The translations under genes and the position numbers were made by a program. Of a stretch of DNA of 64,000 nt, positions 1,729-43,706 are shown one piece after another. The stretch's first letter is position 1, and every line of letters begins with the position of its first letter. Location of the stretch: positions 384,001-448,000 of the forward strand of contig CBDHDG010000004.1 of NCBI GenBank assembly GCA_965261595.1, written 5' to 3'. The DNA is from a bacterium. Lineage in GTDB: Bacteria > UBA8248 > JACPRG01 > G963555815. The notes below the pieces were generated by a model. It made no database searches. It saw only the letters and a list, made by a program, of their open reading frames with translations, and was not told where the DNA came from.

Positions 1729-2726
1729 CCGCTCCGAAGCCTCCTTTGAAAGAACCAATACGTTCCCGCCCAGACCCCCAGGATGGTGAAGACGGTCGAG
1801 ACGACGCTGCTCAGCGCCAGGGCCGAGACCCCCGTGAGGCCGTGGCTGATGTTGCACCCTCCGGCCGTCACGGCCCCGAACCCCATGAGCAGTCCGCCGC
1901 CGAATTGTCCGGCCATCCGCTGGGGGGGAGGCGCACGCCACGAGAGCTCCCCCGAAAGGCGCGCCGCGGCGAACGACCCGAACGGCATCGCCAGGACCAT
2001 GAAGACCGCCCAGTTGATCCCCGAGGCGTCCCCCGCCGTCGCGAACCTCGCCATGAGGGCCGTGGGACCGGTGATCGACAGGCCGTAATGCCGGCCGGTG
2101 AGACCGGACAGGAACCACGCCGGCGCCGCCAGCAGGCCGAGGAGGAGGCCGGTCTTCATCCAGCCCCAGCCGAAGAGCGGGACCTCGCGGGGGATCCGAA
2201 TGGCCCAGACAACTACCGCGACCGCGCCCACGCCCACGATGACCCACGGATGGACGCCCAGGAGGTTCGCCAGGGTGGGGACCTGGCCGCCAATCTCGAT
2301 CTCCGACCCCGTCCCCCCCCGGACCCAGAGCCGCACGGGCCGCAGGACCCCCCAGACCGTCGCCGCCGCCGCCAGGCCGAACCCCAGAAGCGCCACGAAC
2401 GAGCCCACCATCCCTTCCCCCACACGGCTCCACGTCCCGCTCGAACACCCGCCCGCCAGGGTCATCCCGATCCCGAAGACGAGCCCGCCCACGACCGCCG
2501 CCCGCCAGTAGAAAGGGACGCGCCACATCTCGAGCAGGCCCAGGGAGGCCCCGAGGTGAATGAGAACGGCCTGGACGGCTACGGCCAGCAGGTACGCCCG
2601 CAAGAGCGTCGCGTCCCCGGCGAACCGGACGGCCCGGAAGGCCGAGTTCATGCAGAACCGGCCGCGCTGGAGGATGATCCCGAAGAGAAACCCGACCGGC
2701 AGGCCGAGGGCGATTTGAAGGGCCAT
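1725..2726 (-). CDS. YeeE/YedE-family sulfur (thiosulfate) transporter
   Basis: QRGRFC, GMTLAGGCSSG and GGCNISH motifs; many hydrophobic segments. Confidence 0.9.
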   Translation of the reverse strand: MALQIALGLPVGFLFGIILQRGRFCMNSAFRAVRFAGDATLLRAYLLAVAVQAVLIHLGASLGLLEMWRVPFYWRAAVVGGLVFGIGMTLAGGCSSGTWSRVGEGMVGSFVALLGFGLAAAATVWGVLRPVRLWVRGGTGSEIEIGGQVPTLANLLGVHPWVIVGVGAVAVVVWAIRIPREVPLFGWGWMKTGLLLGLLAAPAWFLSGLTGRHYGLSITGPTALMARFATAGDASGINWAVFMVLAMPFGSFAAARLSGELSWRAPPPQRMAGQFGGGLLMGFGAVTAGGCNISHGLTGVSALALSSVVSTVFTILGVWAGTYWFFQRRLRSG

Positions 2727-2734
2727 GAAACGGA

Positions 2735-3373
2735 TTACTCGATGACCGGATGCCCGGCCTTGAACCACGCGCCGAAGCCTTCGGCGACGCTGGACGCCCG
2801 GGCGTATCCCCGGCCGGCAAAGAGCGCGGCGGCCGTCGCGCTCCGGAGGCCCTGCTCGCAGATGAAGACCAGATCCCGGTCTTTGGAGAATTCCCCGATC
2901 CGGCCCAAGAGGTCTCCCAGGGAGACGAGGCGCGCGCCTTCGATGACGCCGAGGCCCCACTCGAACGGCTCCCGGACGTCGACCAGCTCGAAGGCGGCCC
3001 GGTTCTCGCTCCAACTCTCGTGAAGCGCCTCGACGGAGATCAGGCCGAGGGGCTCGACCGGCTTCCCGGCGGCCGCCCAGGCGTCCATCCCGCCCGCAAG
3101 GCGGCCAAGGACGTCATACCCCCCGGCAGAGTCGAACCAGCCGCCCGCCTGCCGGACCCGGTCCTCCTCCCCGATGAGGACAACGCGGGAGGGAGCGGGC
3201 GCGACGGCGGGAACGTGCTTCGGGATGCTCCGCGCGCTGAAGGCGATGAAGATCGCCCCGGGAATTCTGGCCTCGCAATATGGGCCGAGGTCCCTGAAAT
3301 CCAGGAGGACGGCCCCCCGCTCGGCGGCCTCTGAAACCTCATCGGGGTCCAGAGGCCGGAGTCCTTCGCTCAT
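2735..3373 (-). CDS. Tandem-domain rhodanese-like sulfurtransferase
   Basis: LLDFR..Y...RIPGA, LAGGMDAW, LVDVREPFEW, active-site loop ICEQGLRS. Confidence 0.85.
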   Translation of the reverse strand: MSEGLRPLDPDEVSEAAERGAVLLDFRDLGPYCEARIPGAIFIAFSARSIPKHVPAVAPAPSRVVLIGEEDRVRQAGGWFDSAGGYDVLGRLAGGMDAWAAAGKPVEPLGLISVEALHESWSENRAAFELVDVREPFEWGLGVIEGARLVSLGDLLGRIGEFSKDRDLVFICEQGLRSATAAALFAGRGYARASSVAEGFGAWFKAGHPVIE

Positions 3374-3406
3374 GTCGTTCCCCTCCCGCCCAGTGGATAA
3401 CACATC

Positions 3407-3597
3407 CTTTTTTTATCCACAGATTACACAGATTACGCAGATTTTAAAGGCTGACCCAAGGAAAAAAATCTCTGTAGTCTATGGATCGATCAAGACGGAT
3501 TGCCATCGACGGATTGACACAAGAAAGGCATCCTTAAGGGTGTAATCATCTTCCCTTTTTCCTCTGTGCAATCTGTGTAATCTGTGGATAAAAAAAG
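3407..3597. repeat. 191-bp element bounded by a perfect 28-bp inverted repeat (MITE-like)
   Basis: ctttttttatccacagattacacagatt at 3407-3434 and its reverse complement at 3570-3597; AT-rich interior. Confidence 0.8.
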
Positions 3598-3612
3598 AAG
3601 TTCGTCCGTCCC

Positions 3613-3888
3613 CTATGCGACATGGGCGATCGACGCCGGGGGGAACGCCCCCAGGGCGTAGATGGTGTAGGTCTCGATGGGGGCCAGGGGGTTTCCGTTC
3701 AGAAGTTTCATGAGCTCTTCATGTGATGCCACCTCGAAGATGGAGGCGTAACCCTTCAGCCCGACGATGGGGTGAATCTTCGCTTTTCCCCTTGCTTCCA
3801 GCAAGGAAAAATACTCCACTCACCCCTGGATGTCGGCGCCCTTGGGCATCAGTGCGGGCGGCTCGTTGATGACGAGAAACTTCGGCAT
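3613..3888 (-). CDS. Small DUF3303/muconolactone-isomerase-like protein with in-frame UGA at codon 23 (putative selenoprotein, or pseudogene)
   Basis: AAGGAG RBS, ATG at 3888; TGA at 3820-3822; frame continues 68 codons and aligns with paralog 3921-4226, which has Cys23. Confidence 0.65.
3784..3810 (-). promoter_or_regulatory. Candidate bacterial SECIS hairpin
   Basis: mRNA reads UGA gug gag uau uuuuCCUUGCU gga AGCAAGG ggaaaa; G-starting apical loop lies 20 nt after UGA. Confidence 0.5.
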
Positions 3889-22580: not shown

Positions 22581-22969
22581 TGGAGTTGACCCGGTTTGGT
22601 GGACACCTGATGATTTGGGGGTAAAGGAGGTGTTCACGATGCCACAGACTCACCCACGCTATCCAATGGAGTTCCGCTGCCAGATGGTAGAGTTGGTCCG
22701 GGCGGGACGCACGCCCGAGGCGCTGGCGCACGAGTTCGAGCCCTCGGCGCAGACGATCCGCACCTGGGCCCATCAAGCCGACGTTGACGAGGGGCGTCGC
22801 AAAGACGGGCTCACGAGCGATGAGCGGGAGGAGTTGCGCCGACTTCGCCGCGAGAACCGACAGCTCCGCCAGGAGCGGGAGATCTTAGCAAAAGCCGCGG
22901 CCTGGTTTGCTCGGGAGACCGATTCGATCCCGTCCGGATCTACGGGTTCGTGAGGGCGAACCAAGCCAT
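22581..22969 (+). mobile_element. IS3-family element A, truncated (left IR, orfA 22639-22953, start of orfB)
   Basis: TGGAGTTGACCCGGTTTGGTGGACA IR; orfA HTH; cut by element B. Confidence 0.85.
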
Positions 22970-24379
22970 TGGAGTTACCCCGTTTCAGTGGACAGTTTAG
23001 GGCTGTCGTCCCCAGCCCTGAGGTGGGCAACAGCCGGTGGACGTACAGTCTTCTCCCGATCCGATAGATAGGGTGCCCCCGGGGGGTATGTCTTGACCTT
23101 TGGCTCGCTGCTCCGGGAAGCACCGGGGACGGCTCGAGCCGGACGATGAGCGTTGCGCACTGCACGTGGCGTTTCCTTCGCCACGGCGCGTTCGAAGTCG
23201 TTGGGGCTGAGGTAACCCAGGGCCGAATGACGACGGCGTGGGTTGTACCAGCCTTCGATGAATTGGAAGATCGCCAGGCGCGCTTCGGCCTGGGTACGGA
23301 ACGAGCGCCGGTCGATGAGCTCGCACTCCAGCGTGGCGAAGAAGCTCTCGGCCATGGCGTTGTCGAAGCAATCCCCGGCCGACCCGGTCGAGGGAACCAC
23401 CCCCATCTCCCGGCACCGCTTCCCAAAGGCAAGCGAGGTGTACTGCGAGCCCTGGTCGGAGTGATGTACGACCCCTTGGGGCGGCGCTGTCCCAACGCCA
23501 TGTTCAGCGCCCCGAGCACCAGTTCGGTGCGAAGATGGTGGGTCATGGACCATCCCACCACCCGGCGGCTGAACACGTCGAGCACGATGGCCAGGTACAC
23601 GAACCCCGTCCAGGTCGGCACGTAGGTCACGTCGGCCACCCAAAGCCGATCCGGCGCATCGGCCTGGAACTGGCGTTCGACCCGGTCCGGGACCACACAA
23701 TGGCTCTGGTCCACGCGCGTAGTGCGCATGCCTCGGCGTCGGCTCACCCCGGCCAACCCTGCCTCGCGCATCAGACGAGCCACCCGTTTGCGGCTCACCC
23801 GGCAGCCGCCGGCCATCAGCTCGGCATGGACCCGAGGCGCCCCGTAGGTGCCACCAGATACCTCGTGGATGGCCCGGATCGTGCCACGCAACGCCTCCTC
23901 GCGCTTCGCACGATTCGAACGCCCACGGCTTCGCCACGCGTAGTATCCGCTGGGGGAGACACCCAGCCGACGGCACATCGTGGCCACCCGATGGCAGGCC
24001 TGATTCGCCTTCACGAGCTCGAAGACTTCGCCCGGACCGAGCCGGTCTCCCGAGCGAACCAGGCCGTAGCTTTTGCCAGTATCTCGCGTTCTTCGCGAAG
24101 CTGACGATTCTCCCGACGAAGCCGCCGTAGCTCCTCGAGCTCTGAGCTTGTCAGACCGTCCTCACGACGGCCCTCGTCGCGGTCGGCCTGGCGCACCCAG
24201 TTGCGAATCGCCGAAGCGGAACACTCGAACTCCCGGGCCAGCTCCCCGGGCGTACGGCCCGAGCGAACCAGCTCAACCATCTGGTGCCGGTACTCCGGCG
24301 CGTAGGGTGAATGTGTTTTCGCCATCTGAACACCTCCTCCGCACAGTCTGAAGGTGTCCACAAAAACGGGGCAACTCCA
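22970..24379 (-). mobile_element. IS3-family element B (orfA 24011-24325; orfB with extra frameshift near 23480)
   Basis: IRs TGGAGTTACCCCGTTT / AAACGGGGCAACTCCA; WVADVTY, HHSDQGSQY, AESFFATLE; no target duplication seen. Confidence 0.9.
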
Positions 24380-24543
24380 TTCCATTCATTTTATAGATCC
24401 CTTTCGTGAAGGTTCCAGTCCATCCCGGTCCCGAAACGACCGAATCAGCCCTGCTTCTTTACACCCGACGCAGGCGCAAGGGTTCCCCGTCAATCCCTAT
24501 GTAATGGCGAATACGTCTTCACGGCCTTAAGGCCGTTAATTGG

Positions 24544-25471: not shown

Positions 25472-27590
25472 ATGATGTTCGGCAACGCAACGCTCAGGGG
25501 CGGCCAGACCCTGGCCCACGACGTCCACATGTGGGGCCAGCTGGTCCGCTGGGGGCTTTTGGGCATCGCCCTGACGGTCGTCCTGGTCCCCGCCGTGGCC
25601 CTGTTCCGCACCACGACCGCCCATGAATGGCGCCTCGTCGGAACGGGCACCCTCGCCCAGGTCAAGCTCGCGCTCGGGTATCCACGTCATTCCCTCCAGG
25701 CGTACGAGTGGCGAGAGGGCCAAAAAACGGCCCTGAGAATCGTGGATATCGCCCAGGACCCCAGGATCGAAAGGATCCGGAAACGCATGCTCCATACCGT
25801 CTACGCCAGGGCGTGGCTCGGCCTCTGGATCGGAGTGGGGGGCGCGGTCCTCTGTACGGTCCTGTTCTCGGTCCTGGGAAGGCGCCTGGACCGTGCCCAA
25901 CGGGGTCCGCGGCGCGGAAATGACGACGGCCCGGGAGCTGAGAAGGCGCGTGCAGCCCGTGTCCGCGCGCCTGGCCGAGGCCCTGTTCCCCGCCGCGCGC
26001 CGAGCCTCCTGCCGCATCGCCGGGATCCCCTGGCCCAGGCGCGCCGAGACCCAGCACACCATCGTCTCCGGCACCACCGGCTCGGGCAAGACCGTCCTGA
26101 TCTCCGACCTCGTTGCCCGGCTCCGCGCCCGGGGCGAGCGCTGCATCCTCTACGACAAGATGGGGAGCTATACCCGCTCCTTCTTCGATCCCTCTTGTGA
26201 TGTGCTGATGAACCCCCTGGACGCCCGGGCGCCCCGCTGGTCCCCCTTCTTCGAGGCGAGGACGCCCCGGGACTTCGACATGATGGCCGCCGCCCTCATC
26301 CCCCAGCAGAAGGACACGGTGGACCCCTTCTGGGTCACGGCCGCGAGGCAACTGTTTTCCAACGGTGCGGGCGTGCTCTGGAAGAAGGGCGTGACCGAGA
26401 ACCGGGTGCTCGTCGACCACCTGCTCAAGACCGACCTGACGGCCCTGGCCCGGGCCATGGAGGGCACGGTGGCCCAGTCCATCGTGGACCCCGAAAACCC
26501 CAAGACCGCGCTCTCCGTCCGGGCCATGCTGACCGCGCACCTGGGAGCGCTCGAGTTCCTGCCCGATACGGGAGAGCCCTTCTCGATCCGGGACTGGGTG
26601 GGAAGGGAGGACGGGACCGGGTTCCTGTTCCTGACCTCCCGGGGCGACCAGCACGCGAGCCTGAGAGGGCTCATCTCCACCTGGCTCGAGATCGCGGTGA
26701 ACGCGCTCCTTTCCCTCCATCAGGACGACGCGCGCCGGGTCTGGGTAGTCCTGGACGAGCTGCCCACCCTCCACCAGGTGCCGAGCCTCCAGCCGGGGCT
26801 GGCCGAGTCCCGCCAGTTCGGCGGGTGCTTCGTGCTCGGGATCCAGGTGATCTCGGCCCTGCGCGACCTCTACGGAAAAAACGGGGCGGAGACGATATCC
26901 GGGCTTTGCGGCACCCGGGTGGTGCTGGCCGCGCCCGACCAGGAGACGGCCCGGTGGTCGGCCGAGAGCCTGGGGCGGGGCGAGGTCGAGGAATACGCCC
27001 ACGGCATGAGCTACGGGGCCAGCGTGCTGCGCGACGGGGTCTCGCTCACCCAGCGCCGGGAGATGCGCTCCCTGGCCCTGCCGTCGGAGATCATGCGGCT
27101 TGAGAACCTCCAGGGGTATCTGAAGTTCCCCGGGCCCTGGCCCGTGGCCCGGATCAAGCTCGACTACGTCACGAGGCCCAAGGCGGCCGAGCGCTTCGTG
27201 CCCAGGGAGGAGGAGGCGGCGCAGGTAACGGACGCCGTGGAGTCCGGGCCGCCGGAGGATGACGGAGGCATTGCGGCCTCGCCGTCGGAACCTGCAATCG
27301 AATCCCGGCAAGAGGAACTCGCACTCAAGCACCCCCAGGGTTCCAGATCGGGGACGCGGGAACGGGTCGAGGCGAGGGAATCCGGGCAGGCCTCAGCGAC
27401 ACCCCGTGGAGAATCCACGAGGCAGCCTCACAAGAAATCCGAAAAGGACGAAACGGGTGCGGCCGATGATCATGGGACCGACACCGAAGGCGTCCCGGCC
27501 CTTTCGCTTCCGGGCAAGAGCGGGAACAGCACGCCCGGGTGCGGGGAGCCACGACCAAAGCCGCCTCAGGGCCGTTTGAGGCGCCTCTGA
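25472..27590 (+). pseudogene. traD: Type IV coupling protein (TraD/TrwB), +1 frameshift in a G run near 25902
   Basis: N-terminal RGGQ plus two TM segments in one frame; GTTGSGKT, DARAPRWSPF, DPFW, VVLDELP in the next. Confidence 0.88.
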
Positions 27591-27591
27591 C

Positions 27592-30507
27592 ATGGTCGCC
27601 TCGATCGGCGTTGTCTCGGCCCCGTCCCAGGGCGCGGGCTACTACGAGCGGGACGGCTACTACGCGAAGGACGACCCGGCCCACAGGGAAGCGAGCGCCT
27701 GGGCCGGCAAGGGCGCGGAGGATCACGGCCTCTCCGGCCCGGTCGATCCGGACCTCTTCCGGGCGGTGCTGGAGGGCAAGGCGCCCGACGGCTCCGGACA
27801 ACAGCTCGGACGCAGGGGGCCCGATGGGGCCCTGGAGCACCGGCCCGGGCGGGATCTCACCTTCTCCGCCCCCAAGTCCGTCTCCCTCGCCGCGCTCGTC
27901 GGCGGCGACAAGCGCATCGTCGAGGCCCATGACCGGGCCGTGAAGCGCGCCCTCGACTGGGTCGAGAGGAACGTCGCCGAGACCCGCATGAAGGACCCGG
28001 AGACCGGACGTATGGTAAAGAAGGGCGATCAGAAGATGATCGCCGCCACCTTTCGCCACGACGCCTCGCGCAATCTCGATCCCCTGCTTCATACCCATTC
28101 GGTGATCGCCAACATGGTGCAGGGCGCGGACGGCAAGTGGCGGACCATGTCCAACGAGAAGCTCTATGCCTCGAAGATGCTGATCGGCGCCATGTACCGA
28201 AGCGAACTGGCGCGCAATCTGGGCAGGCTCGGCTACGGGATCGAGAAGACCCATGCTGACGGGCGATTCGAGATCGCGGGCGTTCCCCGCGAGGTGATCG
28301 AGACGTTCTCGACACGGCGGGCGGAGATCGAGGCGGCCATGGCCGAACGGGGCGTGGACACACCGGCAAAGAACCAGCGCCTCGCCCAGCGGGCGGCGCT
28401 CATGACCCGGGCCCGCAAGCGGGACGTGGACAAGGCCGAGTTGCGGGGGATCTGGGAGAAGCAGGCCGCCCATCTCGGGTTCGACGCAAAGGCCCTTGCG
28501 GCCGAAGCGATCTCGAAGGGCGCCGTATCGCGGGACGCCGGCCGGGAAGGCGCCGGTGCGGCTCGCGAGACGTCTCGGGACCGGCGGCTGGCCGGGGAAG
28601 CCGTGGAATGGGCCGTGGCGCATCTCGCCGAGCGCGAGGCGGTGTTCTCACGCGCCGATCTGCTCGCCGGCGCGCTCGCCTGGGACCCCGGCGCGGTGGC
28701 CATGCCGGAGGCGGAACGGGAAGTGGGCAGGCTGGAGAAGGCCGGAACGCTGCACGCGGCGAGCCTGCCAGGGGCAAAGGACATGCTCACCACGAGCAGG
28801 GCCGTGGCCGACGAGCGGGAAACGATCGCCCTGGTGGAGGCCGGCCAGGGACGGGAAGCGGTCCCGATGCGCGCCCGGGCCGTGGACAAGGCCCTCAGAA
28901 AGGGTCCGCTGACACAAGGCCAGCGGGACGCCGTCAAACTCATCCTGTCGGACAGGGACCGCGTTATCGGCGTGCAGGGCTATGCCGGGACCGGCAAGAC
29001 CACCATGCTGAGCCGCGCCCGCGCGCTCCTCAAGAAGCGGGGCTACGAGGTCAAGGGCCTCGCGCCCTCGGCCTCGGCCGCGCGGACCCTGGAAACGGAG
29101 GCCGGGATCAAGAGCGAGACCCTGCAACGCTTCCTTGCCAGCAACGCCGGGGTGGGCGAGGGACGGCTGACGAAGAAGGGCGAGAGGGAGATGCGAGCCG
29201 CTTATCGGAAGACCGTGCTGGTGGTGGACGAGGGATCCCTCGCCTCCACGGTCCAAGCCCGCAACCTCCTGAGGATCGCCAACACCTTGCGCCTTCCCCG
29301 GGTCGTGCTGGTGGGCGATGCGAAGCAGCTCGACGCGGTGGATGCAGGCAAGCCGTTCGCGCAATTGCAGCAAGCCGGCATGAAGACGGCGACCATGGAG
29401 GAGATCATGCGCCAGCGCGACCCCGACCTGAAAGCCGCGGTCGAGGCGAGCCTCGCGGGCAACGTTAGGAAAGCCTTCGAGAAGCTCGGCTCCAACGTGG
29501 CGGAGGTGAAGCCCGACAATCTCGCCGGCGCGGCCGCCGCACGGTGGCTCAGGATCTCGCCGGAAGCGCGCGCCAGGGCCGGACTGATGGCGCCGAGCCA
29601 TACGCTTCGGGAGGAGATCAACGCCATCGTCCGCGATCGCCTGGTCCGCGACGGCATGGTCCATGGCCCGGCCATGAAGTCCGGGCGACTGGTCTCCCAC
29701 GGCTTCACTCATGCCGAGAAGTCGCTCGCGGCCAACTACGGCCCGGGCGACGTGGTGGCGTTCCACCGCCCCTACAAGCGTCTCGGCGTCGAGAAGGGCG
29801 ACGAGTTGCGCGTGGCCGGGGTCGATCACGAGGCACGCGCGGTTAGGCTTGAAGGCAAGGACGGGCAATCCGTCCTCTGGGAGCCCGGCCGTCTCGCGGC
29901 GCGGAGCGGCGGGGTCGAGGTCTACAAGGTCGAGCAGTTGGAGTTGCGCCAGGGCGACCGCATCCGCTGGACCCGCAACGACGCGGGGCTCGGTCTGGTC
30001 AACAGCCAGACCGCCGAGGTCGCGAGCGTGAAGGACGGCCGCGTGACCTTCCGTCTGGAGGACGGGCGCATGCTCGACATGAAGGCGGGCGATCCGCAAC
30101 TGCGCCATATCGATCGCGCCTGGGCCTCGACCGTGCATGCGTTCCAGGGCCGGACGGTGGACACGGTCATCGCCGCGATGGAGGCGAACCACCCCAATCT
30201 CACCAATCAGAAGACGCTTTACGTGGAGATCAGCCGGGCCCGGGACCGGGCGGAACTGGTGACCGACGATGCCAAAGCGTTGCGGGAAAGGCTGGAGGCC
30301 GCGACGGGTGAGCGCATCGCGGCGCTCGAAGCGGTCGCGCCGGAGAAAGCGAAGACGCCGGAAGCCCGACTGGAGGTGACCCACAGTCTCGACAGGGAGG
30401 GTGCCGCGCGGGAGTCCAAGGGGCCGAACACGCCGGAGCGGGTGTCCGGACCGGAGGCGGAAAAGGCCCGCGCACCGAAGAGCGTCGATCGCGATCTCGG
30501 GCTGTAA
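27592..30507 (+). CDS. MOBF relaxase-helicase (TrwC/TraI-like)
   Basis: GYYERDGYY tyrosines, DLTFSAPKSVS, HDASRNLDPLLHTH, GYAGTGKT, VVDE, TVHAFQGRT. Confidence 0.95.
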   Translation: MVASIGVVSAPSQGAGYYERDGYYAKDDPAHREASAWAGKGAEDHGLSGPVDPDLFRAVLEGKAPDGSGQQLGRRGPDGALEHRPGRDLTFSAPKSVSLAALVGGDKRIVEAHDRAVKRALDWVERNVAETRMKDPETGRMVKKGDQKMIAATFRHDASRNLDPLLHTHSVIANMVQGADGKWRTMSNEKLYASKMLIGAMYRSELARNLGRLGYGIEKTHADGRFEIAGVPREVIETFSTRRAEIEAAMAERGVDTPAKNQRLAQRAALMTRARKRDVDKAELRGIWEKQAAHLGFDAKALAAEAISKGAVSRDAGREGAGAARETSRDRRLAGEAVEWAVAHLAEREAVFSRADLLAGALAWDPGAVAMPEAEREVGRLEKAGTLHAASLPGAKDMLTTSRAVADERETIALVEAGQGREAVPMRARAVDKALRKGPLTQGQRDAVKLILSDRDRVIGVQGYAGTGKTTMLSRARALLKKRGYEVKGLAPSASAARTLETEAGIKSETLQRFLASNAGVGEGRLTKKGEREMRAAYRKTVLVVDEGSLASTVQARNLLRIANTLRLPRVVLVGDAKQLDAVDAGKPFAQLQQAGMKTATMEEIMRQRDPDLKAAVEASLAGNVRKAFEKLGSNVAEVKPDNLAGAAAARWLRISPEARARAGLMAPSHTLREEINAIVRDRLVRDGMVHGPAMKSGRLVSHGFTHAEKSLAANYGPGDVVAFHRPYKRLGVEKGDELRVAGVDHEARAVRLEGKDGQSVLWEPGRLAARSGGVEVYKVEQLELRQGDRIRWTRNDAGLGLVNSQTAEVASVKDGRVTFRLEDGRMLDMKAGDPQLRHIDRAWASTVHAFQGRTVDTVIAAMEANHPNLTNQKTLYVEISRARDRAELVTDDAKALRERLEAATGERIAALEAVAPEKAKTPEARLEVTHSLDREGAARESKGPNTPERVSGPEAEKARAPKSVDRDLGL

Positions 30508-30590
30508 TGCATGACCGCCGGATCGGGCGGCGGCGACTTCCCGGTCCCGCGGATGAACGTCGGACGCCGCCTGCCGGGAAAAGCCGACTC

Positions 30591-30619
30591 TTGACCTTCA
30601 TCGCCACCGGAGCTAGATT
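30591..30619 (+). promoter_or_regulatory. Sigma70-type promoter upstream of the NYN gene
   Basis: TTGACC, 17-nt spacer, TAGATT. Confidence 0.65.
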
Positions 30620-30625
30620 GTCAGG

Positions 30626-30685
30626 AATACCCCCTGCGGTTTCGAGCGCAGGGCGCGGGGCCTCTTCGGAGGCCCTTGCTTTTTT
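30626..30685 (+). ncRNA. Putative ~60-nt structured leader/small RNA ending in a terminator
   Basis: Hairpin ccctgcg/cgcaggg (30632-30653), then cUUCGg hairpin gggcctc/gaggccc (30658-30675) and T6. Confidence 0.45.
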
Positions 30686-30696
30686 GGCGGGAATCG

Positions 30697-31320
30697 ATGC
30701 GCACTTTCGTCTATGTCGACGGGTTCAATCTCTATTACGGGGCGCTCAAGGAATCTTCCTGGAAATGGCTGGACCTGCTCGCCCTGTTCGAGAAGGTGCT
30801 GCAGCCCCATCACGATATTCTGGCGATCAAGTACTTCACGGCAAGGGTGTCGGGCACGTCCGGCGATCCGTCCAAACCCCAGAGGCAGGACGTGTATCTC
30901 CGCGCCCTGCGGCATTATCGGCCCCGGGTGGAAATCTACTTCGGCCACTTCCTCAGCCACAAGGTCTGGGCGCCGCTTGCGCAACCGCTTGGGAGCCAGC
31001 GCATGGCGGAGGTGATCAGGACCGAAGAGAAAGGCTCGGACGTCAATCTCGCCGTGCATCTGCTGAATGACGGGTGGATGAACGCCTACGATTGCGCTGT
31101 GGTCGTCTCCAACGACAGCGACATCGCCGAAGCGATGCGCCTGGTGAGACAGCATCATGCTAAGCGGATCGGCCTGATAACGCCGGGAACCGGCCGTCCA
31201 TCCCGCCAGCTGATGGCGCATGCGGACTTTTCAAGGCATATCAGGGACAACGCCCTGCGGCGTTCGCAACTCCCGAATCCGATCCCCGGTGCCAATATAC
31301 GGAAACCTTCGCACTGGTAG
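30697..31320 (+). CDS. NYN (LabA/DUF88, PIN-fold) ribonuclease
   Basis: VYVDGFNLYY, IKYFTA, EEKGSDVNLA, VVSNDSD; acidic catalytic residues present. Confidence 0.9.
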   Translation: MRTFVYVDGFNLYYGALKESSWKWLDLLALFEKVLQPHHDILAIKYFTARVSGTSGDPSKPQRQDVYLRALRHYRPRVEIYFGHFLSHKVWAPLAQPLGSQRMAEVIRTEEKGSDVNLAVHLLNDGWMNAYDCAVVVSNDSDIAEAMRLVRQHHAKRIGLITPGTGRPSRQLMAHADFSRHIRDNALRRSQLPNPIPGANIRKPSHW

Positions 31321-31560
31321 CATGACTTCCGAAGCGTGGCCGTGGACGCCGGCGCCGGAAACGGAGATAGCGAGCGCTCTGTAACACATCAGGCACAATC
31401 CGGGACTGTAGGCGCGCGACTCCGGGGACTCGTAAGGCTCGTTCCCGGAGTCGCCGTTACAGTCCGGCCGCTCCGCGAAGACCCGCTCGGCAAACGCCGT
31501 CCACCCCTTCCGGTCGAACCCGAGCCGGGCATTCATGCCGTCGCAGAAATCCGCCGCGCT

Positions 31561-31995
31561 CGAAGCCGTGGGTGTTCGCGTCGTGCCGAGCGCGACGGGG
31601 AGCTGTGGGGCACGATCCGGGCCATCCACGAGGGCTCTCGTGGCACCTACGCGAGGCGCCTCGGGTGCATGCCGAGCTGGTGGCCCAGGGATGTCGGGTG
31701 AGTCGCAAACGGGTGGCTCGTCTGATGCGTGAGGCGGGCTTGGCCCGGGTGAGCCGACGCCGAGGCACGGGCACCACGCGGGTGGACCCGAGTCATCGTG
31801 CGGTCCCGGACCAGGTCGAACGCCAGTTCCAGGCCGATGCGCCGGATCGCATCTGGGTGGCCGACATCACCTACGTGCCGACTTGGGCCGGGTTCGTGTA
31901 CCTAGCCATGGTGCTCGACGTGTTCAGCCGCCGGGTGGTGGGATGGTCGATGGCCCACCCTCTTCGTACCCAACTGGTGCTCGGGGCGCTCAACA
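31561..31995 (+). pseudogene. IS3 orfB internal fragment
   Basis: Close match to element B orfB (SRKRVARLMRE, WVADITY). Confidence 0.85.
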
Positions 31996-32302
31996 GGTCA
32001 CCGAGACCCCCTTCAGCTTCAGTTGCTGGCTCAGGCGCACTCCCCCCACATGGGATGCTCCAGGGATAAGGCCAGGATCTGCTCCATCACCTCGGGGGGC
32101 ATGGTGAAGGGATGGGAGAAATGAATCGGGGGCAGGTCTTTGAGGCCCTCCCCCCCGTGGGTCTGAAAGCGGCGCTTGTACTCGTAGAACTGGCTGCGGC
32201 TCATGCCCCGTCGCGGTAGGCCTCCGATACGTTGCCCAGGGCCTCGGCCAGTTGCAGGGCGCTGAGTCGATGCTTCACAACCTTCTTCTCTGCCGTTGTT
32301 AT
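31996..32302 (-). pseudogene. IS481-family transposase N-terminal fragment
   Basis: LQLAEALGNVSEA, GMSRSQFYEYKRRFQTHG, EQILALSLEHP; start codon degraded to ATA. Confidence 0.7.
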
Positions 32303-34850: not shown

Positions 34851-35280
34851 CGACGGGCGCGGGTGCGGACGGTGCATCGACGTTTCCGGAATTCCATCCT
34901 CCGCTGGAGGGCGAGGTGCTCGCTTGGTCGCGATTGCCCCCCCACCGCATCAGCCTTCGCCCGGAGGCTCGGCTTCTGCGACTCCCCCTCAAGGGGGGAG
35001 TGATTCCGGAGCAGCGAGGGCATGCCATCAGCTTGTGATTCCCACCCTTGCCGGATACACGCGGGGACAGGAACCAGCGGGAATCCGTCCATCGGGGCTG
35101 AAACGGGGGTTCAATGGGCCTGAAACGGGCCTGCAAGGGTGTTGAAAAGGGGAGGGATTCTCATCGACATTTCCAGTTGATATGATATTCTTGGTAAAAG
35201 AATATGCAATATCTCGTGTATATATACGTTCATCGGTTAGTTCAGCCTCTACATGTTGCGTCTTTTTCGTCAAACATCTA

Positions 35281-38200
35281 ATGCCGAAAACACGGGCCAA
35301 TGAAGACGACCATCGAGCCTCCGGACTCCACGGCCGGGTCCGGCCTTCTCCGCCTCACGTAGCTCGGGCTCCCGCGGGGAGACACCGTTGTCAGGGTCTC
35401 GTGGTCTTCGCCATCGTGCTGTCGGCGCTTCTGTCCGGCGCCGCGGCGGCACAGGAGGACGTCGAGGTATGGGACGGTACAGTGGAGGTGTCGCCGGGCA
35501 CGTTGACGATCGAAAAGGGAAAGAGCCTCTCCTACCGCTTGAGACTTTCCAAGGCGCCGACCTCCGACGGATGGTTTGTCAGGGTGCGCGTCGACGGCGT
35601 GGTGTACAACGACGGCCTCTACAAGGGCATCCGTTGGGTGCCGTCGGTCGGCTGGGAGTTCAATCAGGACAACTGGGACCAATGGCGAGACATTCACATA
35701 ACGGCGCGGGATGACGCTGAACTCGATACGCCGGTGAAATTCACTCATGAAGTGTGGGAGGACGACTCCTTCTGCCCGGTGCACAATGTGGGCCCGGTGA
35801 CGGTAACCGTCACCGACGAAGACGGGACCGGAACGACCACCCCGCCCTCGCTGAGCATCGACGACGCGACCGTGGCGGAGGTCTCGGGAGCGACGGCCGT
35901 GTTCACGGTGACGCTGAGCGAGACGAGCAACCAGGACGTGACCGTGAACTACGCGACCTCGAACGGCACGGCGGCCGCGGGGTCGGACTACACAGCCTCG
36001 AACGGGACGTTGACGATACAAGCGGGTTCCACGACCGGGACGATCACGGTTCCGATTCTGGACGATTCGGTGGACGAGGCGAACGAGACGTTCACGGTGA
36101 CGCTGAATTCCCCGACCAACGCCACGATCTCGGGTGGTTCGGGGAGGGGGACGATCACGGACAACGACGATCCGCCCTCGCTGAGAATCAACGACGTGAC
36201 GGTGATGGAGGCTTCGGGGGCGAGGGCCGAGTTCACGGTGACGCTGAGCGCGGTGAGCGGCCAGGACGTGACGGTGAACTACGCGACCTCGAACGGGGAG
36301 GCGGTTGCGGGGTCGGACTATACGGCCACCGGCTCGACGCTGACGATACAGGCGGGGTCCGAGACCGGAACGATCACGGTTCCGATACTCGACGATTCGG
36401 TGAACGAGCCGAACGAGACGTTCACGGTGACGCTGAGTTCACCGACCAACGCCACGTTGGAGGACGCGGTAGGCGTGGGAACGATCACCGAAGACGACCT
36501 TCCTCCATCTCTACGCATCGATGACGTGAGGACGGCGGAGGCTTCGGGAGCGACGGCCGTGTTCACGGTCAGGTTGAGCAGGGTGAGCGGCCAGGACGTG
36601 ACCGTGGCCTACGCGACCTCGAACGGCACGGCGGTTGCGGGGTCGGACTATACGTCCACCGGCTCGACGTTGACGATACAGGCGGGCTCCGAGACCGGGA
36701 CGATCACGGTTCCGATACTTGACGACGCGCTGGACGAGCCGACCGAGACGTTCACGGTGCGGCTGAGCAATCCGACCAACGCGACGATATCGGACGACGA
36801 AGGGGTCGGAACGATCACGGACAACAACGCTCCGCCCTCACTGAGCATCGACGACGTGACCGTAACCGAGGCTTCGGGGGCGACGGCCGTGTTCACGGTG
36901 ACGTTGAGCGGGGTGAGCGGCCGGGACGTGACCGTGGCCTACGCGACCTCGAACGGGACGGCGGTTGCGGGATCGGACTACACGGCCACCGGCTCGACGC
37001 TGACGATACAGGCGGGGTCCGAGACCGGGACGATTACGGTCCCGATTCTGAACGACGCGGTGAGCGAGCCGGCCGAGACGTTCACGGTGACGCTGAATTC
37101 CCCGACCAACGCGACGATATCGGACGACGAAGGGGTCGGAACGATCACGGACAACGATGCTTTGCCCTCGCTGAGAATCAACGACGTGATCGTGATGGAG
37201 GCTTCGGGGGCGAGGGCGGTGTTCACGGTGACGCTGAGCGCGGTGAGCGGCCAGGTGGTGACGGTGGACTACGCGACCTCGGACGTGACGGCGGTTGCGG
37301 GGTCGGACTACACGGCCACCAGTTCGACGTTGACGATACAGGCGGGTTCCCCGACCGGGACGATACGGGTTCCGATTCTGAACGACGCGCTGGACGAACC
37401 GGACGAGACGTTCACGGTGCGGCTGAGCAATCCGGGCAACGCCACGTTGGAGAACCAGGAAGGTGTGGGAACGATTACCGAAGACGACCTTCGGACCTCT
37501 CGTCCTACGATTCGCGACAGCCGTGCCGATAGCCTCCGACCCACGCTGCGCATCGATGATGCGGCTCCCGTAGCCGAGGCTTCGGGGGCCGCGGCGGTGT
37601 TCACGGTGACGCTGAGCGGGGCGAACAGCCAGGACGTGACGGCGGCCTACGCGACCTCGAACGGGACGGCGGTTGCGGGATCGGACACACGGCCACCAGC
37701 TCGACGTTGACGATACAGGCGGGCGCCAGGACCGGGACGATCCAGGTTCCGATACTCGACGATTCGGTGGACGAGCCGAACGAGACGTTCACGGTGCGGC
37801 TGAGCAATCCGACCAACGCGACGATATTGGACGATGAAGGGGTCGGGACGATCGCGGACAACGACGGTCCGCCCTCGCTGAGCATCGACGACGCGACGGT
37901 AACCGAGGCTTCGGGGGCTGTGGCCGAGTTCACGGTGCGGCTGAGCGAGGCGAGCGGCCAGGACGTGACGGTGAACTACACGACCTCGAACGGGACGGCG
38001 GTTGCGGGATCGGACTACACGCGCACGAGCGGGAAGCTGACCTTCGCTGCGAGCGAGACGGAACAGACGATCACGGTTCCGATTCTGGACGACGCGGTGA
38101 GCGAGCCGGCCGAGACGTTCACGGTGACGCTGAGCAATCCGGTGAACGCTACGGTGGCGGACGACGAAGGGACCGGGACGATCATCGATGCGGTTACGGT

Positions 38201-40019
38201 GTCCTACGGGGCGGCGTCGTACACGGTGACGGAGGGCGAATTCATCGAGGTGACCGTGGTTCTCAGCGCGCCTCCCGGTCGATCGGTCGCGGTTCCGATG
38301 ACGCACATGCCCGACGGCGGCGCGGTCGAGACGGACTATTCGGGGGTTCCCGAGAACGTGCTGTTCGGTCCTTCGGAGACGCAAAAGGCCTTTGCCGTCA
38401 GGGCCGTGCAGGACGCAGAGGACGACGACGGGGAGAAGGTCGTGCTCGGATTCGGAGGCCTTCCCCCGGGCGTGACGGCGGCCGATCCCAAAACCGCCAT
38501 TGTGACCATCGAAGAGGACGATCATGCGCCGGATGCAACGCCGAGGCCGTGGCTGGCGCGGTTCGGACGGACGGCGGCGGCTCATGTGGTGGATGCCCTC
38601 GACGAACGGATGCGGTGGCTGGCGGAGCCGCCGCGCTGCCCGCCGGAGCACGGTCCCCGGTGGCGGTGCAGACCGCCGAGCAAGGAACCGCGGTCCGTGG
38701 TGATCAGCGGTCACCGTCTGGAAAGCGGCACGGCGATGACAGAGGCATTCGGACAAATCCGGGCGGAGGATGGGTCAGACGGCAAATGGACGCGGGATGA
38801 CGGAACGCTTGGGGATCGGGGCGTGGACGCATTCCGGAGCCTGACCGCAAGCGAGATCCTGGCCGGGAGCTCTTTCCATGTATCGTCGGAGGAGGAGGGA
38901 GACGGGCGGAGGTTCAGCTTCTGGGGCCGGGGCGCGTTCTCCCGCTTCGATGGCCGCGATGACGGTCTCAGACTGGGCGGGGACGTCACGACCGCTACGC
39001 TTGGGGCCGATGTTGCGGTCGAACGCTGGCTGGCCGGGATCGTGTTGTCGCACAGCCGGGGCGAGGGGACGTTCCCGCTGGACGGTTTCGAGGGTGAGGC
39101 CGCGTCTTCCCTGACCGGTTTCTATCCGTACCTGCGTTACGAGGTGAGCGAGCGCCTGTCGATCTGGGGCATGGCGGGCTACGGCGCGGGAACGCTGACG
39201 TTTACGGCGGACGACGCTGAGCCGATCGATACCGGCATCGCGATGATGATGGGAGCGGCCGGCGCGCGCGGAGAGCTTCCGTCTCCGGCTGACGGGGAAG
39301 ACCTCTCGCTGACGCTCAAGGCGGACGTACTGGTTCTGCGGACCGTCTCCGATGGGGTTTCCGGCCTGAGCGCGGCAAAGGCCGGTGTCAGCCGGCTGCG
39401 TCTGGGGCTCGAGGGATCATACGAGCTCGTCTCCGAGGGCGGCGAGTGGCTTTCGCCGTTCATCGAGGCGGGCCTGCGCCATGACGGGGGTGATGCGGAG
39501 ACGGGCTTCGGCATGGAGATCGGCGGCGGGCTTCGCTATGCGCACCCGGAACTGGGCCTGACGGCGGAACTCAATGCGCGCGGGCTGCTGACGCACGCCA
39601 CGGACGGCTTTGCGGTATGGGGCATGTCGGGGTCGCTGCGCTACGATCCGCACCCGTCCTCGGAGCTTGGCTTGTCTTTCACGCTCTCCCCGTCCTGGGG
39701 GGCGACGGCTTCGGACGGCGTGGACGCGTTGTGGAAGCGCGGCGCCATGGCCGACCTTGCCGCGAACGACGACGCCGGGCCCGGCGGGCGGATTGTTGCC
39801 GAACTCGGCTACGGATTGCCGGTCCTGGGCGGCTCGGGTACGGGAACGCCCCTGGCCGGGGTCGCGCTGTCGGAGACCGGGAGGGACTTCCGCCTCGGCT
39901 ACCGTCTTGGATTCGGTTCCGCCCTGGACATGGGCATCGAGGGCGCGCTCCGGGAGATCGCGAACGGCAGCGATCCCCCGGAATACGGAATCATGCTGCG
40001 GGGCGCGCTGCGATGGTAG
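35281..40019 (+). pseudogene. Calx-beta repeat autotransporter adhesin, frameshift near 37687 (start uncertain)
   Basis: Signal peptide; seven VTVNYATSNGTAVAGSDY...EPNETFTVTLS units; C-terminal barrel (FWGRG, LRHDGGDAETGFG, ends LRW); tcggac-acacg lacks one T. Confidence 0.85.
35841..38190 (+). repeat. ~330-nt Calx-beta tandem repeats (7 units)
   Basis: Units start near 35841, 36171, 36501, 36831, 37161, 37537 and 37869. Confidence 0.9.
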
Positions 40020-41547: not shown

Positions 41548-42951
41548 TCCCCCGCTCTAGGGTTTTGTTGGACACTCGATTGATCCATGATTCATGGAGA
41601 AAGGGGTGTCGCGATGAACGAACAAAAGCAAGAGGGGGCTTTGGCGGAGGGCGCCCGCAGGGCGAACGGAGCCAAGGCCCCAGGGCATCGCAGTGAGCGG
41701 GGTCGGTTCTCCTGCCAGCGCAAGCGGGAGGCGGTCCTGCGTCTTTTGCGGGGCGAGAGCCTGGAGACGCTCTGCCGCGAGTTGGGCACGACAGCGGCTC
41801 GGCTTTCCGCCTGGCGCGAGGCGTTCCTTCGCGGGGGCGAGGCGGCGCTCAAAGCCCGCCCGGCGGATGAGCGGGCCGAGGAGAACGCCCGGCTCAAGGC
41901 CAAGGTGGGCGAACTCACGATGGAGGGCGAGGTCCTGCGGGAGAAGATCGACCGCCTGGAGGCCGGCCGCCCTTTAGCCGGCAGGAGGTGGAGGCGATGA
42001 GTCAGGCCCGCTTCACCTCCACGGGCAGAGCCTACGGCCTGAAGCGGGTGTGCGCCCTTTGGGGCTTGGCGCTCTCCACGGTCTACGCGCAACGGCGGCG
42101 AGAGGCGGTCCCCGTTCATGAACGCCCCACGCCCAATAAGCGCGGCCCTGTGGGCCCGTGCACCGATGCGGAACTCCTCGGCCACATCCGGCAGGTCCTG
42201 GAGGACTCTCCCTTCCATGGCGAGGGCTACCGCAAGGTGTGGGCGAGGCTGCGCTTCGCGGGCATCCGCACCAGCAAGGAGCGGGTGCGTCGCCTGATGC
42301 GGGAGGCGGGGCTTCAGGCCCCCCACCGGGTGGGCAAACCCCGAGGTCCCAAGGCCCACAACGGGACCATCCGCACCGAGCGGCCCGACCGAATGTGGGG
42401 CACGGACATGACGACGACGGTGACCACCGAGGAGGGGGTGGCCTCGGTGTTCGTGGCGGTGGATCACTGCTCGGTGGACTGCGTGGGGATCCATGCGGCC
42501 AAGAGCGGCAACCGCTTCGAGGCCCTGGAGCCGATCCGGCAGGGGGTCGCCGAGCGCTTCGCCGGCTTGGAGGCGGACGTCGCCGAGGGGCTTAAAGTTC
42601 GTCACGACCACGGCCCCGCCTATCTGTCCGATGACTTTCAGCGGGAGATCGCCTACCTGGGCATGACCAGTTCGCCCAGCTTCGTGCGGGCGCCCGAGGG
42701 AAATGGCTACTGTGAGTGGTTTATCCGCATCTTGAAGGAGAATCTCCTGTGGGTGCGCTCTTTCGCCACCGTAGAGGAACTGCGGTGGGCGCTGCTTGAG
42801 TTCAAGAACCTGTACAACCATCATTGGATTCTCGAGGGCTACGGCTACCGAACGCCGGCCCAGGCAAGGCAGGAAAAACTCGCTCAAGTTGCGGAGGCCG
42901 CATGAGGTCGAATACCCTCACCCGAGTGTCCAATAACCCAGGGGCGGTCCA
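41548..42951 (+). mobile_element. IS3-like element C, copy 1 (1404 bp; orfA 41614-42000, orfB to 42905)
   Basis: Ends defined by comparing four copies; MWGTD, RHDHG, LKE DDE motifs; no target duplication. Confidence 0.92.
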
Positions 42952-43561
42952 CGTCCTTGCTCAGGGTGGTGATGCTTGCCGGCGTTGGAAAGCGTTCCAG
43001 AAGGGCAAAGAACCAGTCGCTTCTGCTGTTGTTGCGAAAGCGCTCGATCTCCGGAAAGTAGAGCGGTAGGTAGTGGCCCTGAATCCGATGCAGGATCTCC
43101 GTCTTGGCTTTGGAAACCACATCATGAGTCTTTGACAGCTCCTGGATGTCGTTGATTCCGTTGGCCAGTGGATCGTAGTAGCGCTGGCTCGCTCCGATCT
43201 TCAGCATGTGAAGGATGACCTGGGCATCCTTCGGGTCGTTCTTGTCCCAGCCATTGTGCAAGGCCTCGCGGGTCCGGGCTAAAGCTACCGAAGAGATCAG
43301 GCGGACGTTGAAACCGGCTTCCAGGAGCCGCCAGGCCAATGGTCGATGATGGTTGCCCGTCGCCTCAAAGCCGGCAACGATCGGATGGCCCAGACCGCTC
43401 AGGGTCTGGATGAAGAGGTCGTGCGCCTCGCGCGTGTTCAATACCGTCAGTCGGCGACGTCGGCCGCGACCGGGAAGCTCTATCAGGACTTCATTCCGGC
43501 GCTTGGCGACATCGATGGCTACAAGTGCCGTATCGCTCGGCGTAGGGTGGTATCGGGTCAT
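42952..43561 (-). pseudogene. IS110-family recombinase N-terminal (DEDD) part, truncated by element C
   Basis: VAIDVAK, GFEATG, KNDPKDAQVI. Confidence 0.88.
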
Positions 43562-43706
43562 GGTCGGTCTGCCTCCAAAGTGGCGAATGAGCGCGCTTAC
43601 TCTAGAGACCTGCGGTCCGGCCATGACCGCCCGCTTGAGCGCTCAATGGGCTCCACGGGCGGTCATGGCCACCACCTGCGCTTCCTTCCCAATGTGCTAC
43701 GGATCG

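Follow-up and report, generated by a model that had tools for sequence, protein, structure and literature searches.

In ToxIN, a promoter, an RNA, a terminator and a toxin gene follow one another, with the terminator setting the stoichiometry such that the RNA is in excess (PMC5772629, in the passages available). The criteria for toxin–antitoxin systems of type III, given by Blower et al. (2012) and quoted in the accessible part of PMC12283969, comprise a shared promoter, tandem RNA repeats, a Rho-independent terminator and homology to ToxN, CptN or TenpN. The same 2025 text lists toxIN, cptIN, tenpIN, AvcID and AbiF as RNA-antitoxin systems, and a 2026 publication still names three families in its abstract. 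In AbiF of C. difficile, the RNA RCd22 neutralises the toxin in cis as well as in trans (bioRxiv 10.1101/2025.04.15.648962, available passages). Moreover, HEC-09 was described by Payne et al. (bioRxiv 10.1101/2024.01.29.577857) as a single-protein, NYN-domain candidate embedded in Hma systems; the clone carried a putative native promoter region, and the available passages of that preprint mention no RNA. Here, we examined a locus of this protein family in a 64,000-nucleotide (nt) stretch of bacterial DNA (GTDB lineage UBA8248; assembly GCA_965261595.1, contig CBDHDG010000004.1, positions 384,001 to 448,000 of the forward strand), the whole of which is termed the window. Positions 30591-31320 are predicted to hold a self-contained two-component RNA–protein module—a small structured RNA followed by the gene of a NYN-domain ribonuclease—and we lean, with modest confidence, towards reading the pair as a new, NYN-based family of type III-like toxin–antitoxin or abortive-infection systems.

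The module consists of the following parts, given in 5'-to-3' order.

30591-30596, + strand: -35 hexamer TTGACC (promoter scan, 9/12 match with an N17 spacer)
30614-30619, + strand: -10 hexamer TAGATT (promoter scan), ending 12 nt 5' of hairpin 1
30627-30685, + strand: predicted small RNA of 59 nt, from the putative +1 A to the U tail
30632-30653, + strand: hairpin 1, a 9-pair stem with a UUCG loop (alignment, RNAalifold)
30655-30685, + strand: intrinsic terminator, a 10-pair G+C-rich stem with a bulged U and a UUCG loop, followed by U6
30655-30679 and 30680-30685, + strand: terminator stem and T6, respectively (sequence)
30686-30696, + strand: 11-nt gap with a weak Shine-Dalgarno-like GGGA (sequence)
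30697-31320, + strand: intact gene of a NYN-domain ribonuclease of 207 amino acids, PADLOC HEC-09 family

The original prediction, made on the window's letters, had placed a promoter, a hairpin, a terminator with U6 and the ATG of a NYN gene at these positions, with the T run ending 11 nt 5' of ATG 30697 and a poor ribosome-binding site in between; inspection of the sequence and the scans located every one of these parts. The 7-bp stem ascribed to the hairpin, in contrast, needed correction, as the comparison with relatives gives 9 pairs closed by the UUCG loop. The predicted RNA is ordered as a 5-nt 5' tail, hairpin 1, one pyrimidine, the terminator hairpin and the U tail. In the window copy, a G.G mismatch (30639/30646) lies within the hairpin 1 stem, and the terminator scan called 30657-30676, with 8 pairs, 6 of them G-C. 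The NYN gene starts at ATG 30697 rather than at TTG 30676, in agreement with the N-termini of its homologs (MRTxVYVDGFN). The 11-nt gap between the U tract and this ATG is too short for a second promoter, and the NYN mRNA would therefore have to arise, in the layout of the window, by read-through of the terminator.

Statistics on the window copy were mixed. Promoter-like sites between 25000 and 36000 numbered 7, against 0.9 +/- 0.9 in shuffled sequence, with the module promoter among them; terminator-like sites in the same region numbered 7 against 7.2 expected, and since this class is not enriched, the terminator scan alone is no proof. Folding of the 81-nt stretch yielded a modest z = -2.2, with 3 of 200 shuffles equally stable. 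Tandem Repeats Finder returned 0 rows in 30400-31400, in keeping with the absence of tandem repeats noted from the outset, and the covariance model introduced below found a single copy. The significance of the RNA is thus to be sought in the comparison with relatives, not in the window copy alone.

This comparison carries the central finding. A genome scan, with one genome per species, confirmed at least 526 NYN-encoding loci, 80 of which were kept; the loci span Alpha- and Gammaproteobacteria, Acidobacteriota, Nitrospinota, Bacteroidota, Planctomycetota, Verrucomicrobiota, Chloroflexota, Gemmatimonadota and others. When the 130-nt stretches preceding NYN were printed for the first 40 loci, both hairpins and the U tract could be recognised in them. 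A covariance model built from 22 aligned upstream regions, for which RNAalifold predicted both hairpins, produced 81 matches at E <= 1e-3 in the window plus the 80 loci, all on the NYN strand, and the window copy matched at 30612-30696 with 82.1 bits (E 3.8e-26). In 72 of the 79 loci with an N-terminal NYN match, the end of the RNA falls within the interval from 9 nt inside NYN to 41 nt short of its start. The seven misses comprise two weak model matches in the right place, two variants recognised by eye, one locus whose upstream sequence is only 48 nt long, one second, N-terminally fused NYN copy and one actinobacterial contig that ends 23 nt past the NYN gene.

Pairing is preserved to a high degree. 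In the 81-row, model-fitted alignment, 95.2% of 1503 cells are paired, and double (compensatory) changes occur in 18 of the 19 base pairs (295 cells)—none of 500 shuffles reached any of the pairing measures, and controls with slid partners were 39-55% paired. Both elements contribute: hairpin 1 has compensatory changes in 9/9 pairs (90.5% of cells paired), and the terminator stem in 9/10 (99.4%). In the 5' tail, the junction, the stem bases and the hairpin 1 UUCG loop, the sequence itself is kept besides the structure; the loop letters U, U, C and G are each kept in 72-76 of the 81 copies, and five U-tract columns in 66-78. A resemblance of the hairpin 1 loop to a tRNA T-loop was considered and rejected, since the covariation favours a C-G or U-A closing pair around a UUCG tetraloop. 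The prediction had itself proposed to look for conserved structure upstream of NYN homologs, and such structure is present, with strong covariation. We regard the RNA, on this comparative evidence, as real, structured, under selection and coupled to the NYN family. It resembles no catalogued family: Rfam 15 gave 0 matches at the gathering score across the whole window, and within 30400-31500 at E <= 10 only sX7 appeared (E 5.8, chance-level and inside coding sequence), with abiF absent. When plasmid relatives were compared with Rfam, only RNAI was matched, at a different position, and a blastn search of 30300-31500 against plasmids returned one irrelevant 86-bp match.

The promoter recurs along with the hairpins. 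A sigma-70 match of at least 9/12 lies within 60 nt 5' of hairpin 1 in 46 of the 81 copies, against 3.0% of 1620 random 60-mers drawn from the same loci, and for 30 of these 46 strong promoters, 11-14 nt separate the end of the -10 element from the hairpin. An A is conserved in 70/81 copies at the expected +1 column, which corresponds to window position 30627. From the promoter spacing and this conserved A we infer a +1 at 30627, with an RNA that would start ~5 nt before hairpin 1 and extend over ~59 nt. Minimum-energy folds have both hairpins coexisting in 67/81 copies, and hairpin 1 persists in 59/81 copies in folds of the nascent RNA; a conserved antiterminator pairing was not found among the 81 copies by thermodynamic folding, the only approach applied.

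The protein half of the module matches the Pfam NYN family (PF01936) with E 3.8e-8, above the cut-off, and the PADLOC HEC-09 model with E 2.7e-45 over positions 3-202 of 203. No other Pfam family was hit at E <= 0.01—neither homology to ToxN, CptN or TenpN nor Abi_2 was detected—and NCBIfam held no meaningful match, while a PDB profile search found 0 sequence-level relatives. AlphaFold2, supplied with a 116-sequence alignment, produced a model with a predicted local distance difference test score (pLDDT) of 97.3; with 33 close sequences only, the score was 47 and the model unusable. Among solved structures, a structural search gave the best matches to 2qip, a LabA-like NYN protein, and to the NYN domains of MARF1. 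The AlphaFold2 model features a long beta-hairpin insertion at residues 84-112, and the homolog alignment reveals a conserved C-terminal tail ending in W. Residues D8, N11, E111, K112, D115, D140 and D142 are invariant among 116 diverse relatives, which bears out the expectation that the acidic motifs are retained. A profile match above cut-off, a PIN-like fold and the acidic residues, i.e., the features expected of a NYN/HEC-09 protein, are thus all found. Given the invariant catalytic-type residues and the confidently modelled NYN fold, the enzyme looks active.

In a homolog search, significance was reached by 7971 of the 8000 candidates scored, with 77-100% identity for the best 120; among 50%-identity representatives, a threshold of E <= 1e-3 gave 6267 relatives and one of E <= 1e-30 gave 569. 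The family occurs in 443 plasmid records and 3 phage records, and NYN modules reside on E. coli plasmids of 3.5-4.6 kb. In the genome scan, NYN relatives in different phyla were 65-83% identical, and recent horizontal transfer is therefore indicated. As judged from these searches, the NYN family is very large and horizontally mobile. A subset of loci with NYN proteins 59-84% identical (L001-L015, L033, L039) comes from metagenome-assembled genomes labelled as Paracoccaceae, Gammaproteobacteria, Bryobacterales, Nitrospinota, Arenicellales, Binatia and Rhodothermales; the cassette appears to have been transferred recently across phyla, possibly within one kind of habitat.

The surroundings of the module vary widely. 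Pfam annotation of 149 flanking open reading frames (ORFs) from 28 loci, with ORF lists from 30 loci, revealed no conserved neighbour or protein partner. The 0.8-kb cassette is found amid housekeeping genes—arginase and citrate synthase, FtsZ-region genes and queG, rpoD, pdxA—and also beside transposases and integrases, on small plasmids and in a prophage integrase-immunity region. Restriction-modification/Hma islands are a further setting: at L022, L040 and L043 the cassette is flanked by a methylase gene and a helicase gene, in agreement with HEC-09 being embedded in Hma systems. Such a context is, in terms of gene neighbourhoods, that of a selfish or defence cassette.

Variant layouts help to decide between the readings of the RNA. 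In ColE1-type plasmids of 4.5-4.6 kb from E. coli, Salmonella and Klebsiella, with NYN proteins ~39% identical, a promoter is followed by ~4 hairpin units, a terminator and NYN, as exemplified by E. coli pRHB40-C03_3 and a Klebsiella plasmid (L082, L084). Tandem Repeats Finder reported a period of 33 x 2.6 for these units, with diverged copies running on; the units of L082 are near-identical, linkers included, and contain no variable spacer-like segment. PLSDB has 17 records of this tandem-unit module, which is also carried by 10 of the 5426 complete E. coli genomes, and its layout is, by analogy, the textbook type III arrangement. The single-unit system originally proposed hence applies to the window copy and to the majority of relatives, without covering the family as a whole.

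A second layout, convergent, was found in Mycobacterium phage prophiGD43A-1 and in the Paenarthrobacter plasmid pYJN5-4. In both, the RNA (41.5 and 47.3 bits) is encoded on the strand opposite to NYN and downstream of it, and has a TTGACA promoter of its own and a terminator that abuts the NYN stop codon; NYN stands between the integrase and the immunity repressor in prophiGD43A-1, and the layout of pYJN5-4 is similar. Being convergent and separately promoted, the RNA of these two actinobacterial elements is therefore no 5' leader. Additionally, orphan copies of the RNA exist without NYN, and six NYN pseudogenes (with internal stops, frameshifts or truncations) keep a high-scoring RNA. Among the loci examined, no clearly intact NYN gene without the RNA was found.

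Several further arrangements were recorded at individual loci. L008 (6505-7497) and L011 (2174-3277) carry a second, orphan RNA copy with its promoter; ~80-215 nt 3' of it begins a small ORF, and this ORF overlaps the gene of a Fic-domain protein (Pfam Fic, E 9.6e-17). The small ORF and the Fic gene look like a type II toxin–antitoxin pair, and the RNA in front of this operon may serve other toxin genes or supply extra antitoxin dosage. L014 (3366-4000) contains three tandem copies, with a period of ~275 nt, of the promoter, the RNA and the first ~30 NYN codons, and the full-length NYN copy there is interrupted by a stop at codon 23; an interpretation as ToxI-like repeats was rejected, these copies being duplications of promoter, RNA and NYN 5' end with a 275-nt period. 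At L006 (2149-4621), a tyrosine integrase gene (2476-3699) stands between two copies of the RNA, the second of which is followed by NYN, and the RNA region may have been the target or boundary of an integrase-borne insertion. The 3461-bp E. coli plasmid NZ_CP063347.1 (L081) has two annotated genes, for NYN and for a VbhA-family antitoxin that no Fic gene follows; a weak match to the RNA model (832-915, E 6.6e-4) accompanies the NYN gene.

A distant NYN subfamily, with 28-38% identity, was encountered on pK245-type Klebsiella plasmids and on small Klebsiella/E. coli, Pseudomonas, Xanthomonas and Thiothrix plasmids (L092, 470-700; L093; L094, ~560-700; L097, ~560-700; L085, ~2330-2480; and L091). 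Its upstream RNA differs: by eye, the hairpin is longer and contains a conserved GCGAUUAAGUU-like core, and a terminator and then NYN come after it. Apparently 2-3 tandem units could be discerned, likewise by eye, in L092 and L093, and no match to this upstream RNA was found in Rfam.

For the toxin–antitoxin or abortive-infection reading that we favour, ToxIN offers the most economical template. A strong constitutive promoter would fire ~5 nt before the stable UUCG-capped hairpin. Most transcripts would halt at the intrinsic terminator, yielding an abundant small RNA of ~59 nt, and a minority would read through into NYN, whose start lies 11 nt farther on. The RNA would bind the NYN protein and hold it inactive, for which the layouts in trans and the six NYN pseudogenes that retain the RNA lend indirect support; upon loss of the element, or when a phage shuts off host transcription, less of the short RNA would be made and the RNase would be freed.

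A number of observations weigh against this scheme. The transcript ends, the direct RNA–protein binding, the toxicity of NYN and the trigger are all features that we infer. A HEC-09 representative protected E. coli from none of the phages tested, according to the accessible passages of bioRxiv 10.1101/2024.01.29.577857. The NYN fold is unrelated to those of ToxN, CptN and TenpN; in the window and in most relatives, a single unit lies adjacent in cis, which equally suits a leader acted on by NYN. The pair counts were obtained from an alignment fitted to the model, which favours structure, with the compensatory changes also plain in the raw upstream sequences. The terminator 5' arm is able to pair upstream in the nascent fold of 23/81 copies, and some switching at the terminator is conceivable in part of the copies, as far as folding models go. 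Finally, the convergent layout was seen in only two elements, and the orphan RNA found before a small-ORF and Fic operon in two loci hints that the RNA cassette may also serve other genes. The negative phage screen and the mainly cis-adjacent layout, in particular, keep two other explanations alive.

According to the first, which we consider unlikely, the RNA is a cis-acting, autoregulatory leader in the 5' untranslated region that holds NYN expression down and that NYN or a host factor binds or cleaves to adjust the NYN level; the RNA would play no antitoxin role, and NYN would be a housekeeping-type or accessory RNase, not a toxin. The adjacent, co-oriented RNA in 72/79 loci, with the gene starting 0-41 nt past the end of the model, the lack of room for a separate NYN promoter and the strongly conserved terminator U-tract all agree with such a leader, as do the alternative pairing of the terminator 5' arm that is possible in 23/81 copies and the want of a defence phenotype for HEC-09 in the published passages available. 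However, the RNA genes of the two actinobacterial elements are convergent and separately promoted, the tandem units of the enterobacterial plasmids would be needless for attenuation, and orphan RNA copies stand without NYN. The hairpins, moreover, coexist in 67/81 folds, with hairpin 1 present in 59/81 nascent folds and no conserved antiterminator seen, and dispersal as a 0.8-kb cassette over unrelated contexts and phyla, at 65-83% identity, is not what one would expect of a housekeeping RNase. The plain attenuator that had been named as the alternative at the start is likewise weakened by the variant layouts and by the absence of a conserved antiterminator, among the 81 copies folded.

The second, which we rate as quite improbable, casts the RNA as a positive cofactor that NYN requires in order to act, rather than as an inhibitor; within an RNA–protein nuclease, it would be the subunit that provides structure or specificity, as scaffold, guide-like element or sensor. 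It draws on the same co-occurrence and trans-layout evidence as the toxin–antitoxin reading; the conservation of sequence in the 5' tail, stem, junction and UUCG loop is as expected for a specific protein–RNA interface, and the RNA kept beside six broken NYN genes fits either view. Yet no variable spacer-like segment is present, the L082 units being near-identical down to their linkers, and no target-recognition feature is visible; furthermore, an RNA excess enforced by a terminator follows known antitoxin logic (PMC5772629, portions available) and is less obvious for a stoichiometric cofactor. A related and bolder proposal, to which we assign a rather low probability, makes the RNA an integral subunit of a minimal RNA–protein nuclease: the ~59-nt hairpin RNA, with its conserved 5' tail and junction, would license, target or arm the NYN RNase and might, e.g., sense a phage product or the shut-off of host transcription. 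If this were true, the module would represent a new and very widespread RNA-dependent class of defence or addiction systems, with both parts distinct from the described type III families.

A last explanation, an ordinary terminator of a trwB-trwC operon combined with a chance promoter match and hairpin, with NYN as unrelated cargo, has virtually no chance of being correct: the element does lie 148 nt past the relaxase stop codon, terminator-like sites do occur at chance frequency in the region and the single-sequence folding z is only -2.2, but NYN homologs elsewhere have this RNA and promoter in front of them although the genes farther upstream are unrelated and in either orientation (arginase, FtsZ-region, rpoD, methylase and transposase genes), and the comparison thereby refutes it. 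The genes around the module in the window are listed below.

25893-27590: TrwB-type coupling protein gene, upstream (Pfam annotation)
27592-30507: TrwC relaxase gene, upstream (Pfam annotation)
31572-32069: IS3-family fragment (rve + HTH_21), downstream of NYN (Pfam)
22773-24385, 25893-30507, 31572-32069, 42884-43624 and 806-1306: island genes (coupling protein/relaxase and insertion sequence (IS) types)

The pair of coupling-protein and relaxase genes lies between an IS3-family element and the IS3 fragment, with IS110- and IS200-type transposase genes farther out. No other type IV secretion genes were recognisable by Pfam in the annotated part of the window (1-49175). The picture of an intact NYN gene just 3' of a TrwC relaxase, within a decaying island, is thus in line with the Pfam annotation, given a relaxase pair without further type IV secretion genes and IS elements around it. 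A long imperfect inverted repeat (31400-31469), ~80 nt past the NYN stop and just 5' of the IS3-family fragment, could be an IS end or a terminator. Two neighbouring large ORFs rich in Calx-beta repeats (35182-40019) may encode an adhesin-like surface protein, possibly one gene split in two.

With regard to novelty, no report was found in the literature searched of a NYN-domain type III toxin–antitoxin or of any NYN-based RNA-antitoxin system. The structured-RNA discovery papers examined make no mention of NYN in the available portions of their main text, and publications on NYN domain-containing proteins on plasmids offered nothing relevant in title or abstract. The RNA is accordingly undescribed in Rfam and in the literature searched, and the fold of the candidate toxin is not known to have been linked to an RNA antitoxin before. 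If the toxin–antitoxin reading is true, the NYN-based family adds a new toxin fold to the few RNA-antitoxin systems and is large, with 569 clusters (50% identity, E <= 1e-30), at least 526 genomic loci and 443 plasmid records. Annotation would benefit as well: 'NYN domain-containing protein' is all that the gene is called in hundreds of plasmid records, and the RNA is annotated in none of the plasmid records examined. Some plasmid records (H86, H103 and H117) give members of the family the name '6-hydroxy-3-succinoylpyridine hydroxylase / HspA'; this label of a nicotine-pathway hydroxylase conflicts with the NYN fold and is probably a propagated misannotation. The natural copies on small E. 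coli plasmids make the hypothesis easy to test.

Set against the type III criteria quoted above, the locus shares some features and lacks others. A terminator and a shared upstream promoter are present in the window, the terminator in 81 copies and the promoter in 46/81. Tandem repeats are absent from the window and present in L082 and L084, and by eye in L092 and L093; homology to ToxN, CptN or TenpN is lacking, and the structural neighbours are NYN domains. Since the window copy has neither tandem repeats nor ToxN-type homology, it may be said to work like a classical type III system, not to be a member of that class. In this sense, the type III-like idea of the original prediction gained from the tandem and convergent relatives, which strengthen the analogy of layout, while tandem repeats and ToxN-type homology are wanting in the window itself. 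Like ToxIN, CptIN and TenpIN, the NYN module strings together a promoter, an RNA, a Rho-independent terminator and an endoribonuclease gene, is self-contained and horizontally mobile, and occurs on plasmids and in phages; the tandem RNA units of those systems are shared by the enterobacterial plasmid relatives. In contrast to them, the toxin candidate has a NYN/PIN-like rather than a ToxN-like fold, and the RNA unit is a simple UUCG-capped hairpin rather than a pseudoknot repeat. Most NYN loci, moreover, have a single unit, which makes processing into units needless, and some relatives encode the RNA convergently.

Other known systems resemble the module in one component or the other. NYN/LabA-like RNases (the MARF1 NYN domain, VPA0982 (2qip) and Rae1/YacP) have the same fold and acidic active-site pattern, whereas the family of the window adds the long beta-hairpin and the conserved C-terminal tail ending in W. 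To our knowledge, none of the solved NYN/LabA-like relatives has a dedicated RNA partner. The nearest functional analogue, as we see it, is AbiF with its abiF-motif RNA: as far as the published passages available extend, a conserved structured RNA of one or two units, with no long array, lies beside the gene of an RNase-type toxin and acts by binding the protein. The AbiF RNA can be mistaken for a cis-regulatory motif, as the RNA of the NYN module could be. Both the protein family and the RNA differ from those of AbiF, however, with no Abi_2 match in Pfam and no abiF match in Rfam. AvcID, counted among the type III systems in the accessible part of PMC12283969, likewise combines a protein toxin with a small RNA antitoxin that is non-repetitive, but its toxin AvcD is a cytidine deaminase, not an RNase, and its RNA is unrelated to that of the NYN module. 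HEC-09, finally, belongs to the same protein family as the NYN protein of the window, and some relatives likewise lie between methylase and helicase genes. In the passages available, HEC-09 is described without an RNA component, whereas the NYN module has one; this orphan candidate would hence gain a second component, and the RNA offers a reason why the logic of the system may have been overlooked when it was viewed as a single protein.

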